Source: Eledone cirrhosa
Taxonomy: Eukaryota
Length of the DNA: 64,000 bases
Direction: 5' to 3'
NCBI GenBank assembly: GCA_964016885.1
Contig: OZ024743.1
Location: forward strand, 76,632,001 to 76,696,000
The position numbers were made by a program, and so were the translations under genes. How positions within the stretch are numbered: the stretch's first letter is position 1; the number at the start of each line of letters is the position of its first letter. The notes under the pieces were generated by a model. It made no database searches. It saw only the letters and a program-made list of their open reading frames with translations, and was not told the DNA's origin. Positions 5,591 to 63,161 of the stretch are shown here, piece after piece.

Positions 5591-5726
5591 TCATCATTTC
5601 TGAGGACGGCATGTATATGTGAAGGTATGTATATTTCCTCTGATAATTTGTAATATTTTTACATAGATCTATATAATATACATACCAACACACATATACA
5701 TCCCAGAAACGATCGTAAAAAAATGA
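5591..5726 (+). ncRNA. hammerhead ribozyme with long stem II, inside a ~500-bp PLE-type repeat (5280-5780)
   Basis: TCATTT-CTGAGGA-[ATGTATATGTG/CACATATACAT and GGTATGTATAT/ATATACATACC helices]-GAA-ACGATCGT-A-AAAAAATGA; homologous copy at 49887-50022. Confidence 0.75.
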
Positions 5727-6110
5727 ATTTTTTAATATAAAGAACTTGTTCTTTGTGTTTATTTCATTGTTTTTATTAATTTATATATATATATATATAT
5801 ATATATATATATATATATATATATATATATATATATATATATGTATGAATATATATACAGTATATATATATATATATATGTGTGCGTGCGTGTGTGTGTG
5901 TGTGTGTGTGTGTGTGTGTGTGTGTGTGTGTGTGTGTGTGTGTGTGTGTGTGTGTGTGTGTGTGTGTGTATATATGTGTGTGTGTGTGTATATATATATA
6001 TATATATAGTATAAAAGAGAAAACACAGGTAAGCATTAAGAGGAGGATTTTATCCAGGTATTCTCTAACTATATATATATATATATGTATATATATATAT
6101 ATATATATAT

Positions 6111-6870
6111 CTTAGTCTTAGGTTCTTCCGCGCCGTTCGGCACATCGAGCAGTAAGTACTCGCCAACGGTCACGATCAGCCGCGGCTTTTTCACGTCAGT
6201 CGCCAGGTGGAGTCCAGTTCATCACTGTTTTTGAGTGTCGTTCGTCGGGCAGGTGCAGAATATGGCCAGCCAGGCAGCACCGGCGCTCCGTGACCATCCT
6301 CGGTAGCGTCCACGACTCGGCTATCTGCAGGATTTCCTCGTTTCGGACTTGGTCTCACCAGAACACACGAAGGATCCTTCGCAGGCACCGCTGGTGGAAA
6401 GTGTTCAGGCGTCTCTCTATCTTTGCTGTGCTCGTCCAGGTTTCGCTCGCGTAAAGCACTGTCGGCAGCACGATGCTATTGTACTGGCGCAGCTTGGTTC
6501 TGGTGCTGATGCATGAAGACGACCAGACTGGGTGCAACCGCTGGAAAATTGCGACTCCTTTGCCGATCTGACAGTTGATGTCGAGCTCTGCGTCGCCATT
6601 GCTTGCCAGGATGCTGCCCAAATAGGTGAAGAGATCGACTTCCTCCAGGTTTTATTGGTTAACTCTGATCACTGGACCTGTGTTGTTGGCTTTTCTCACC
6701 ACATTGATCTTTTTGGTGTTGATTCTCAGGTCGATCTTTTTCGCACTTTCTTGCAGAGAGGCTGAAGATCTGCACTTTCTTCAGCGATCAAAGCGATGTT
6801 GTCGGCGAATGCCAGGTCCCTCAGCCTCGACTGGCCTCTCCATGGGATTCCTCTGTCCGCCTTAGAATGA
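6111..6870 (-). mobile_element. RTE-clade LINE 3' fragment (RT C-terminus), degenerate
   Basis: YLGSILASNG..DINCQIGKG..FQRL..VW..TKLRQYNSIVLPTVLYASETW is typical of RTE RT; short (CTAAGA)2 tail at ~6111-6121. Confidence 0.8.
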
Positions 6871-6904
6871 AATATTTATATATATATATATATATATATA
6901 TATA

Positions 6905-7382
6905 CGAAATATATACGAAATATATATATCGTTTTCGGTACGCCCGGCCGACTAACTCACTCGATATGCAAATTAGGCTGCTCAGCCGTTAATATGCATA
7001 AGGAAAGTATATACTTTCAAACGTTCAATCATCTGACAGAAAGGTATACGATGCTGACGATAGCTAATAATCTTGAAACTAGTACATCGTTCCTGTGTCA
7101 GTGTTGTACAAAGGGGCGACGATGGTTTCCGAGCACTGTACGCCGTAATTCGGGCTGTTTGTTTACAAACAAACCGAACGTTATAATAAATGTTCGGTAG
7201 ACCCATACGTACACATATATATATATGTGTGCATGTATATATACATATATATATATGTGTGCATGTATATATACACATACTACTGTACGTCTGTACACAT
7301 ATATGTATGTACGTATACATATTTAGGTATCAGCCGTACTAAGAGTGAGAAATGAAATTTCGTTTCATTCTTTTCCATTTTT
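6905..7382 (+). mobile_element. non-coding PLE-type repeat carrying a hammerhead; related copy inverted at 60730-61170
   Basis: Shared sequence (ATATGCAAATTAGGCTGCTCAGC..., CAGCCGTACTAAGAGTGAGAAATGAAATTTCGTTTCA) with the 60.7-61.2 kb copy; flanked by (TA)n. Confidence 0.7.
7048..7090 (+). ncRNA. hammerhead ribozyme
   Basis: ACGATG-CTGACGA-TAGCTAATAATCTT-GAA-ACTAGT-A-CATCGT; 6-bp stem I, palindromic stem III ACTAGT, GUA site. Confidence 0.8.
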
Positions 7383-7510
7383 ATATATATATATATATAT
7401 ATATATATATATATATATATATATATATATATATATATATGCGCGCGCGCGTGTTGTGTGTGTGTTGTGTGTGTGTGTGTGTGTGTGTGTTTGCGTGTAT
7501 ATATATATAT

Positions 7511-7690
7511 AATTGTTTCTACTTTTGGCACAAGGCCAGCAATTATCCAGTGCATTACTGGCACTTTATTTTATCGACCCCGTAAGGATGAAAGGTAAAG
7601 TTAAGCTCGGCAGGATTTGACCTCAGAACGTAAAGGGGCATAACTCTATGCTGTAAAGCATGGTGTCTGACGCTCTACCGATACTGCCAA
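7511..7690 (-). mobile_element. tRNA-derived SINE (octopus-type family)
   Basis: Reverse complement has A-box/B-box-like head and body CCTTTCATCCTTACGGGGTCGATAAAATAAAGT..CTTGTGCCAAAAGTAGAAAC, repeated about 10 times in the window. Confidence 0.8.
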
Positions 7691-7749
7691 GTAGTTACGA
7701 GGTGTCAGACTATCATCATTAAGTTTATTAAGGTGTGATGTGTTCCATG

Positions 7750-60531: not shown

Positions 60532-60985
60532 ATATATATATATATATATATATATATATATATATATATATATATATATATATATATATATATATATATA
60601 TATATATATATATATATATATATATATATATATAGGTAAGTTATTCCGGGTTGAATCGGAGGTAATCACAGTAAGTAAGGTACTCAATACATAGCAGAAT
60701 ATAAAAGTTTGAAACGGAATTTCAAAAGTGAAACGAAATTTCATTTCTCACTCTTAGTACGGCTGTTACTTAAATATAAGTATGTATACGTACATACATA
60801 TATGAATACAGACGTACAGTAGTATGTATATATATATATACATACATGCACACATATATATATGTACGTATGGATTCACCGAACATTTATTATAATGATC
60901 GGTGTATTTGTAAACAAACATCCCGAATTAAGCCATACAGTGTCTAGCAACCATCGTTGCTCATTTGTTCAACACTGACAAAGGA

Positions 60986-61028
60986 ACGCTGTTCTAGTTT
61001 CAAGCTTATTAGCTATCGTCAGCAACGT
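60986..61028 (-). ncRNA. hammerhead copy (family of 7048-7090) with a mutated cleavage triplet
   Basis: Reverse complement ACGTTG-CTGACGA-TAGCT-AATA-AGCT-T-GAAACTAGA-A-CAGCGT. Confidence 0.62.
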
Positions 61029-61239
61029 ATACCTTCCTGCCAGATGGTTGAACGTCTGAAAGTATATACTTTCCTTATGCATATTAACCGCTGAGCAGCC
61101 TAATTTGCATATCAAGTGAGTTAATCGGCCGGGGTACCGAAAACGATAAACGGAAAAAATGAAACGAAATTTATATATATACATACATATATATATATAT
61201 ATATATATATATATATATATATATATATATATATATAAG

Positions 61240-62000
61240 AGGGTTAGATCCCGTTCCGTTCTGTGATATAATCCACCACTCTCCATTGGAATTAAGAACT
61301 TACCTAGTCTTTTATTTAACGCACTAGATAAATGTTTTCCCAGATCACATAAATACAGTAAAATCTTTAATTGACACACATTAAACTTCCTTACTCAACT
61401 ACTAAAAATATTGCCCAAAATATAGCAAAAATTAACAATAGAAATCTTGGAATTAAATATAGGAAGATAACTCACAATTGTAAACATAAAATCCCTAATA
61501 GAATAAACAACATCTCGTATAGCAGTAATAGTACCTGTAACATAGAAGAGAGAAACCTACCAACAGACAGACACTGAGATGGAACTTTGAATAGTAACGG
61601 AAATAATTGTAATTTTTGCCCACTAAATAATAACTGTCTTGATAGGAATTTAGTTTATGAATGCATAGTTAAAACGAATAATAAATCTTATAGTTATATT
61701 AGTGCAACTTCTTCTAAATTTAAAGAAAAGTGGTATAACCATCGCCACTCGTTTAAAAGAAAAGATAAAAGATTTAGCACAGCCCTCTCAGAATTGATTT
61801 GATCGCTTAAAAATAATAATATTCAATATTCCGTTTCTTGGCAGAAACTTTCTCGTGCTTTTCCTTATGAAAAAGCATCTATATCTAAGGGGTGTGACCT
61901 CTGTACCACAGAGATTCTTCACATCATAGACAATAGATAAATAATTATAGATAAACGCTCGGAGATTTTTAGTTCTTGTCTTCACAGATTCAGCAAAACT
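61240..62000 (+). pseudogene. Penelope-like linker and GIY-YIG endonuclease fragment, degenerate
   Basis: YNPPLS..FNALDKCFPRSHKYSKIFN.HTIKLPYSTTKNIAQNI; CPLNNNCLDRNLVYECIV..YISATSSKFKEKWYNHRHSF; paralogous to 40.6-41.3 kb. Confidence 0.82.
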
Positions 62001-62892
62001 TTTCATAGGGTATTTAGTTAAATTTTAAATAAAGCTAAATAGACTATGAAATAAGCAATACAAAATTTCTCTATATATAGTTTCAAGCTAATTTGTTGTT
62101 AAAATGTAAATAATTCTAAATAGACTATTAAATAAGTAATATATTTTTTTATTATAGCTTTAACAACTATCTTAAATTTTAAATAGTATCTAAGTGAATT
62201 AAATCTAACATAAAATGATAAAATAGGCTACAATATATACCTCTTTTCCTTTGAACTAATTGATTAATCCGGTAACATGATACCCTAGCCAGTTCAAAAA
62301 AATAGCAACGCCAACTGTTAAATATTTTTCCACTCATATAATATCTACTAAAATACAATTGTAAATATAAACTAAGATAAATTGGCTACGAAATTAGTAA
62401 TTAAAATTTTCTTTTATAGTTATATTATAACGTCAGCATCTTTGAATAAATATCTAAAAATGTCGAAACTGTTTCGATATAGTATCTAATTTAATCTAAC
62501 ATAAGTGATAAATAAATAGAATAACGGTCCATACTTGTTTTCTTTTGATCTATTTGACCAATCTGGTAACCTCATACTCTAGCCAGTTCAAAAACACCAA
62601 CACCAACTGTAATATTTTTCCCACTTTTCTGTGACGATGTTTTTTCCTGGCATATGCTTGCCGGTCACCGAACTAAATAGCTTGTCTCAGACCGCCTGCA
62701 TATCAAATGATATCTACGTCTCCTGTAGATTTCATCTGACGAGAACATGTTTTGACTTATATATAAGCCATACACCTTCTAAATACGTATAATAAAATAA
62801 ATAGGGGATGGACTAAAGTAACTGTCTTTTTTGTTTATTATTATTATAACAATACTCCGGATAAACATATACCATTGAGTGCTTGACATCTG

Positions 62893-63013
62893 TTATATAA
62901 AAGTCGGCTGATTCATAATCAACTAACTCTCTCTAATTGAACAAATATGTATATATATATATATTTGTTCAATTAGAGGGAGTTAGTTGATTTAGAATCA
63001 GCCGACTTTATAT
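62893..63013. repeat. short inverted repeat centred on a (TA)n tract
   Basis: AAGTCGGCTGATTC..CTAATTGAACAAAT-(AT)n-ATTTGTTCAATTAG..GAATCAGCCGACTT. Confidence 0.8.
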
Positions 63014-63098
63014 AGGCGTATATATATATATATATATATATATATATATATATATATAAAGTATTAATAAATGGAAACTATCTTTATAAAACCATATT

Positions 63099-63161
63099 TA
63101 TTTTATTATATATATTTCAAGGGTACCAACATTTTTGGTACGCATCTCATCAGATAAAATA
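63099..63161 (-). ncRNA. hammerhead ribozyme
   Basis: Reverse complement TATTTTAT-CTGATGA-GATGCGTACCAA..TTGGTACCCTT-GAA-ATATATAT-A-ATAAAATA. Confidence 0.75.

Follow-up and report, generated by a model that had tools for sequence, protein, structure and literature searches.

Small hammerhead ribozymes associated with Penelope-like elements (PLEs) reportedly cleave as dimers and carry a short palindromic stem III, a result that citing reviews attribute to Lunse, Weinberg and Breaker (RNA Biol 14:1499). The portion of PMC4209133 (Cervera and De la Pena 2014) compared here describes such motifs with a palindromic helix III, a U3-A8 core, numerous consensus families in each genome and pairs on opposite strands, and reports cleavage by dimer, not monomer, constructs; the dimer statement is also found in the available part of PMC6765202. 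A double hammerhead had been described for the newt satellite and the avocado sunblotch viroid (Forster et al. 1988, as cited in the same portion of PMC4209133), while the function of PLE hammerheads is called unknown in the parts of PMC7761336 and PMC8557442 at hand. Here, we analysed a 64,000-nucleotide (nt) stretch of the 3.0-Gb genome of the animal Eledone cirrhosa (contig OZ024743.1, positions 76,632,001 to 76,696,000), hereafter the window, for which a preliminary description had proposed that palindromic stems III act as family-specific dimerisation codes. The palindromes are very probably stem III of type I hammerheads lying in the end repeats of many Penelope-like families, their self-complementarity likely being kept for double-hammerhead pairing and their sequence likely drifting, without being a selected code. 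The motif is of a known kind with new members, for which conservation of the palindrome is supported and the code is not.

Palindromic stem III and the host elements

All nine palindromes named in the preliminary description, as well as its GAGCTC loop, are present in the window at 41 sites, with GAA preceding each named stem III on one or both strands, and its coordinates 5591, 18353, 42702, 47647 and 63161 are stem I ends of genuine motifs. The sites comprise 5 with ACGT, 3 with ACGATCGT, 2 with ACTAGT, 6 with ACCGGT, 4 with ACAATTGT, 4 with ACTAATTAGT, 2 with ACAGAGCTCTGT, 3 with ATGCGCAT, 5 with ATATATAT and 7 of the GAGCTC-loop family. Strict criteria (a CUGANGA core or its U3-A8 form UUGANAA, stem I of at least 3 base pairs (bp), an undamaged stem III and a cleavage base other than G) were passed by 21 sites, and three more (17962, 18356 and 47650) have a CCGANGA (U4C) core that is family-wide, giving 24 intact sites; the remaining 17 are truncated or decayed, including six of the seven GAGCTC copies, which lack the 5′ core and mostly form fold-back pairs. 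Our motif-directed catalogue holds 49 sites in the window, namely these 41 and 8 sites of four motifs that had been overlooked and whose stem III is non-palindromic or imperfect. With their core (CUGANGA or U3-A8 ... GAAA ... UH) these motifs are type I hammerheads; self stem I measures 3–9 bp in 36 of 37 family representatives, and stem II pairing was demanded by the scans. Note that Rfam returned hammerhead models in only 2 of its 124 matches in the window, both under the gathering score. The earlier assignment of families to palindromes stands as to the palindromes themselves, but ATATATAT and ACGT are each common to different window families; likewise, the GAGCTC family was confirmed at 30, 57 and 59 kb but occurs also at 39.5–39.8 kb. 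The ACGATCGT site at 47102 is not established as a hammerhead, as it lacks the 5′ core and the sample contains no relative of it.

This sample consisted of the window and 140 10-kb tiles, of which 20 lie on its flanks and 120 elsewhere, 1.464 Mb in total. A hammerhead descriptor that did not demand a palindrome gave 292 matches, 116 of which had a perfect stem III palindrome of at least 4 nt; for the chance estimate, the same scan on two block shuffles gave 36 and 32 matches, none of these 68 being palindromic at that length. Flank clustering with stem III masked, followed by hand curation, led to 37 families. We added the families 49896, 4390 and GAGCTC manually and divided the ATATATAT cluster in two, while a satellite cluster, doubtful clusters, singletons, a mis-registered duplicate cluster and the ATATGTAT subfamily row were excluded, together with four families found at one locus each (ACCGTAGT, ACGTGCGT, ACGATTGT and ACATGTGT), three of which pair fully with G-U. 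Stem III is a perfect palindrome in 26 of the 37 families, a wobble palindrome in 3 and imperfect or a hairpin in 8, in agreement with the claim that self-complementarity is kept as sequence diverges. The core, stem I and the non-G cleavage base are also kept across these divergent families, with C3-G8/U3-A8 covariation.

Within families, recurrent stem III variants retain pairing via G-U or double changes. As an example, ATATGTAT occurs 12 times against 35 for ATATATAT among 52 copies, ACGATTGT twice and ACAGCTGT once against 27 for ACAATTGT among 30, and ACGATCGT once against 3 for ACAATTGT among 5, pairing being kept in each case. One-off variants in dead copies often break pairing, and 9 of 21 copies of the ACAGAGCTCTGT family show a private variant. 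The U4C core mentioned above is family-wide in four families (window 18356 and 47650, and loci L105 and L150), three of them carrying ACAATTGT, and was found in 30 of 30 matches of the 18356 family.

Approximate clamp-based computations gave hairpin energies of +0.5 to +6.0 kcal/mol for even stems III of 4–10 nt and of -2.4 to -5.9 kcal/mol from 11 nt up, with favourable homoduplexes at all lengths. When two copies were cofolded, the double hammerhead with both stems I and III between strands appeared in two of the three homodimers and in none of the three heterodimers. In these energies and cofolds the dimer is favoured for short stems and not for stems of 11–19 nt, and the long stems III of the GAGCTC and ACAGAGCTCTGT families are computed to be able to close within one molecule. 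We propose that stems III no longer than 10 nt could not close on themselves, and that two motifs of a tandem transcript would pair through stem III and swapped stems I, each core then cutting the partner strand. Because any palindrome would serve, its sequence could alter through G-U intermediates (ATATATAT/ATATGTAT and ACAATTGT/ACGATTGT/ACGATCGT), while lineages with long stems III would need no partner. Cleavage in this genome is predicted from such folding models.

The GAGCTC family would itself not need a partner, since 59787, the only one of seven folded copies to form all three stems alone, is modelled as a complete monomer. The family has a 5-bp stem with a 9-nt loop (2 bases, the palindromic 6 and 1 base), and the hexamer is identical in 56 of 65 matches across subfamilies with differing neighbouring loop bases, a constancy that by analogy would fit a kissing loop such as that of retroviral dimer initiation. 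The likeness is a resemblance only, and the hexamer shows no covariation: genome-wide double changes at positions 2/5 retained pairing in 6 of 16 cases against 5.5 expected, and those at positions 3/4 in 44 of the best 100 of 114 against 39.9 expected (P = 0.23). Since these double changes are scattered over subfamilies without covariation at either pair of positions, we regard them as decay.

The hammerheads lie in the flanking repeats of an element that encodes reverse transcriptase (RT) and GIY-YIG endonuclease. Locus L012 contains a whole partial-tandem element, in which two direct repeats of 485 nt, 99.4% alike at a spacing of 3.7 kb, enclose the RT and endonuclease frames and each include a 42538-type hammerhead; L011 has an inverted copy besides the direct repeats, and at least 40 copies of the 42538 motif exist at 99–100% identity. 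In the window, a 5′-truncated Penelope-like copy of the L012 element with its end inverted occupies 40041..42644 and consists of an inverted 303-nt end repeat with the ATATATAT hammerhead 40147 (-), the 3′ part of RT and the GIY-YIG endonuclease (40345-41300, +) and the 3′ repeat with hammerhead 42538 (+). In the Atlas, GIY-YIG clusters match the endonuclease part at scores of 0.95-0.96, and the RT frame attains 0.95-0.98 with eukaryotic clusters, RVT_1 being present in some of the latter. Related endonuclease ends are found upstream of the 42538, 42735, 18356, 47650, 49896, 56287 and GAGCTC families, and in 10 loci the 42735 family follows a GIY-YIG end at ~190 nt; none was found in the sampled loci for the ACCGGT, ACTAATTAGT and ACAGAGCTCTGT families. 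Judged from sequence, the layout (RT with C-terminal GIY-YIG, partial tandems, inverted 5′-truncated copies and (TA)n targets) is Penelope-like, matching that given in the available part of PMC8557442.

Palindrome sharing and predicted cross-cleavage

The rule of one palindrome per family does not hold. Stem III is palindromic in most families, but its sequence is not unique: 26 different stems III occur in the 37 families and 16 families share theirs (ACAATTGT in 6, ATATATAT in 4, and ACTAGT, ACGT and one 16-mer in 2 each). The 15 perfect eight-mers form 21 identical pairs versus 1.65 under uniform choice, and still 11 versus 1.03 (P = 5e-5) when obvious relatives are collapsed; with position-specific base frequencies such collisions are ordinary (14.3 expected, P = 0.14), and there is no deficit. 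The three ACAATTGT families of the window are recent, their best copies being mostly 97–99% alike among 1256–2231 candidates each, and their endonucleases were rejected as one clade (p-AU 0.00086) in a test on 16 of 36 rows, including the unlabelled L152 chosen after the first tree. Because recent, non-monophyletic families share it, the ACAATTGT palindrome is either old or convergent, and has not diversified.

The core of a double hammerhead joins the catalytic half of one motif to the cleavage site of the other, and cross-cutting therefore needs both stems to fit. Among 1332 ordered cross-family pairs, stem III fits in 89, stem I in 118 and both in 12, compared with a mean of 7.9 compatible pairs when stem III labels are shuffled; with relatives collapsed, 3 were observed versus 5.1 shuffled (P(≤) = 0.25). 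In this low-power test, no deficit of compatible cross pairs appeared in any of six settings (P(≤observed) 0.25–0.97). The palindromes being neither unique to families nor linked to a shortage of compatible pairs relative to label shuffles, the dimerisation code is not borne out. Nor is cross-activation among the ACAATTGT sharers (18353, 42702 and 47647): stem I reaches at least 3 bp in just one of six ordered pairs (47650 on 18356, 4 bp), and the shared palindrome is insufficient because stem I also forms between partners. As for the idea that each family cleaves only with its own tandem copy, pairing does predict that most families are unable to cross-cut, but palindromes are reused, long stems III self-close, and only two intact same-family head-to-tail pairs (18589/19117 and 20966/21284) exist in the window. 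Altogether, families are predicted on pairing grounds to be largely self-specific, which would be a by-product of divergence since a fit is required in stem I and in stem III alike. Two ATATATAT subfamilies offer a one-sided case, 42538 being predicted by pairing to be able to cut 42831 (both +) and not the reverse; the 42735 motif sits between them on the opposite strand.

A code under selection would mean that families were pushed to differ in stem III, or in stems I and III together, and thereby avoided mutual cutting; if true, such a selected address would amount to RNA-level self/non-self recognition among retroelements and could supply orthogonal ribozyme pairs that cleave in trans. The number of different stems III and the mere 12 compatible pairs speak for it, as do the related ATGCGCAT and ATATATAT (42831) families, whose stems I cross-fit over 8–9 bp and which are separated by stem III alone, with differences at 4 of 8 positions and a heteroduplex of -1.9 to -2.7 kcal/mol versus -8.3 and -15.6 kcal/mol. 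We nevertheless hold it to be distinctly unlikely, given that identical palindromes are in excess, not in deficit, that ACAATTGT is common to three recent, non-monophyletic families, that compatibility equals the shuffled expectation in all six settings, and that a tandem transcript would tether the partner in cis, so that little cross-talk would be expected. Similarly improbable is the wider picture of a two-part address of stems I and III separating dozens of families, with a ATGCGCAT/ATATATAT palindrome switch selected against cross-cleavage and a GAGCTC kissing loop on a monomer-competent ribozyme. We favour drift over a selected address and specificity as a by-product of divergence, the data giving no sign of selection.

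The motifs could also be largely non-cleaving structures or passengers, with the palindrome used for RNA pairing or protein binding in retrotransposition. Among 249 copies of 13 families, 107 stand alone, 100 have an inverted partner only and 42 have a same-strand partner within 5 kb (a number depressed by tile edges); 221 extend upstream across both the motif and the predicted cut site, and only 5 begin at the latter. Because so many pass the cut site and so few have same-strand partners, most inserts appear to derive from RNA uncut at this site and lacking a tandem partner. Window copies are mostly solitary, inverted or decayed inserts and are probably inert, and relatives of the 318-nt tandem family (ACAGAGCTCTGT) are mostly single or inverted. 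Uncut inserts speak for passengers, but an uncut 3′ motif is also expected where a lone motif needs a partner. Abundant families with family-wide core departures (CCGANGA and CAGAAGA) point the same way, as do the low in vitro activity even of dimers (in the compared portion of PMC4209133) and the Naiads, which thrive without hammerheads, the function being unclear, according to the available part of PMC8557442. Against this, the conserved core, stem I and non-G cleavage base, with the C3-G8/U3-A8 covariation, suggest selection on catalysis, and we consider a non-cleaving role unlikely. We give almost no credence to the palindromes being unselected artefacts of AT-rich microsatellites and fold-back insertions. 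It is true that (TA)n and other microsatellites abound in the window, that fold-back copies are plentiful and that ATATATAT is microsatellite-like; however, the shuffle scan, with none of 68 matches palindromic, refutes this reading, GC-rich palindromes occur, the fold-back points of the window catalogue lie outside stem III with a palindrome on each arm, and one family has ATATATAT unchanged in 25 of 25 copies.

Several points weigh against our preferred reading, in which drifting palindromes are kept for pairing in Penelope-like hammerheads. The 37 families are hand-curated, the endonuclease tree rests on 137 columns with long branches, and hammerheads were assigned to endonucleases by adjacency, the 18356 family from 2 loci. 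Of the 118 pairs with fitting stems I, 106 are prevented by stem III, and the 3 compatible pairs against 5.1, at low power, leave room for weak selection for orthogonality. The 42831 homodimer, one of the three cofolded, gave no double hammerhead, and cleavage has left little trace in the inserts. Pfam gave no significant match for the two element frames, and PDB likewise none; the elements are ones that we take to be Penelope-like from layout, Atlas look-alikes and characteristic motifs.

Features of the window

Several motifs of the window stand singly. Stem III ACGT is found at 4390..4417 (+), in a family distinct from that of 21833, with the core intact and stem I lost, and in the intact minimal hammerhead at 21798..21841 (-), which has further copies at 28929 (+, stem I 2 bp), 47320 (+, G at the cleavage base) and 50141 (+, 5′-truncated). 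The ACGATCGT hammerhead at 5591..5725 (+) combines a stem II of ~100 nt with a stem I of 3 bp (core 5600, cleavage base 5717), and that at 49887..50022 (+) is intact and lies behind a GIY-YIG fragment (48989-49162). ACTAGT is intact at 7046..7092 (+; core 7054, cleavage base 7084) and decayed to ACTAGA in a family copy at 60984..61030 (-). Other single hammerheads are the intact ACCGGT motif with U3-A8 core at 16496..16541 (-; core 16533), the intact ACAATTGT motif at 42698..42743 (-; core 42735), the ACAATTGT motif with CCGATGA core, 95-nt stem II and 3-bp stem I at 47647..47771 (+), the intact ATGCGCAT motif at 54996..55066 (+; core 55004) and the intact ATATATAT motif at 56952..57017 (-; core 57009). 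The second ATATATAT subfamily is intact at 42823..42887 (+; 42831), 293 nt behind 42538 on the same strand, and at 63099..63161 (-; core 63153).

Paired copies are of three kinds. Head-to-tail pairs of intact hammerheads occupy 18455..19386 (-; ACTAATTAGT, cores 18589 and 19117, spacing 528 nt) and 20797..21366 (-; ACAGAGCTCTGT, cores 20966 and 21284, spacing 318 nt). Inverted pairs are found at 17875..18443 (ACAATTGT, 99% alike, CCGAAGA core family-wide, cores 17962 (-) and 18356 (+)), 27725..28039 (ATGCGCAT, 27830 (-) intact and 27937 (+) having lost the 3′ strand of stem I by deletion) and 30398..31334 (ACCGGT, 30507 (-) intact and 31225 (+) with A9G). Fold-back pairs comprise intact ACCGGT hammerheads at 42979..43274 (cores 43088 (-) and 43169 (+)), 5′-truncated, coreless GAGCTC-loop copies at 30066..30203, with similar ones at 39499-39793 and 57155-57272, and truncated ACCTTTGGT copies at 60396-60536. 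The sole complete GAGCTC-loop hammerhead of the window, 59787, with its monomer fold of all three stems, lies at 59695..59795 (-), and two ACTAATTAGT copies, 43668 (-, U4C) and 43755 (+, 5′-truncated), at 43542..43817.

One of the overlooked families, at 56279..56335 (+), has a CAGAAGA core and a 17-nt non-palindromic stem III hairpin, with partial copies at 24.3, 28.1 and 55.2 kb; it also occurs in L039 and L073, has 40 matches in 1.46 Mb with the U4A core in 24 of 24, and on the endonuclease tree falls together with the GAGCTC family (95/94), a hint of a monomer-type clade. A second, at 58219..58269 (-; core 58261), has the imperfect stem III AGAACT (AGGACT in relatives), whose dimer would hold tandem A-A or G-A mismatches. 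At 48396-48464, a motif has its stem III shortened to five bases relative to L018.

Other transposon remains of the window (334-3379 (-), 19900-20682 (+), 52326-53337 (-) and 44579-46297 (+)) are LINE-type RT pieces (RVT_1), a DDE transposase fragment and two long frames without Pfam match. A dispersed repeat of ~180 nt lies at 7512-7690 and in seven further places, and two minisatellites, with units of 35 nt and 44 nt, at 12780-14529 and 33571-35849. In the wider sample, L013-L152 contain 196 intact-core motifs from multi-locus families in 1.4 Mb, that is 140 per Mb; a rough extrapolation gives ~4e5 motifs genome-wide, exceeding the 126,247 obtained for axolotl with a different descriptor in the part of PMC7229834 consulted. 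L032 (5131-6063) and L135 hold head-to-tail, retrozyme-like arrays of a 466-nt unit with an ACTAGT hammerhead unrelated to the ACTAGT family of the window.

Comparison with described systems

The window and tiles form a dense natural collection of motifs from an already published class, one genome supplying dozens of natural palindrome/stem I pairs, along with wobble intermediates and monomer-type outliers, on which PLE hammerhead function could be tested. No paper on the cross-family specificity of PLE hammerheads was found in the literature within reach, which mostly excluded subscription papers; the compared portion of PMC4209133 contains no such test, and its supplements may contain families like those described here. 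In that portion, the metazoan PLE hammerheads share with ours the type I topology, the location in flanking repeats (pLTR), the many families and the U3-A8 variant, as well as palindromic positions 15.2-16.2 plus loop 3 with proposed dimer cleavage, opposite-strand pairs 100–700 bp apart and a predominance of single truncated copies. In contrast, palindromes are often longer here (6–12 nt), stems II reach ~100 nt, and cores of the form CCGANGA or CAGAAGA, or long stems III of monomer type, occur in some families. The principle by which a weak helix III is rescued through the pairing of two tandem motifs is that of the newt satellite and avocado sunblotch viroid double hammerhead, as presented in the same portion. 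The 318-nt and 528-nt tandems of the window are similar in repeat size to metazoan non-long-terminal-repeat retrozymes as described in the consulted part of PMC7229834; unlike canonical retrozymes, whose stems III of 1–2 bp go with loop 1/loop 2 contacts, most motifs here end autonomous or truncated PLEs.

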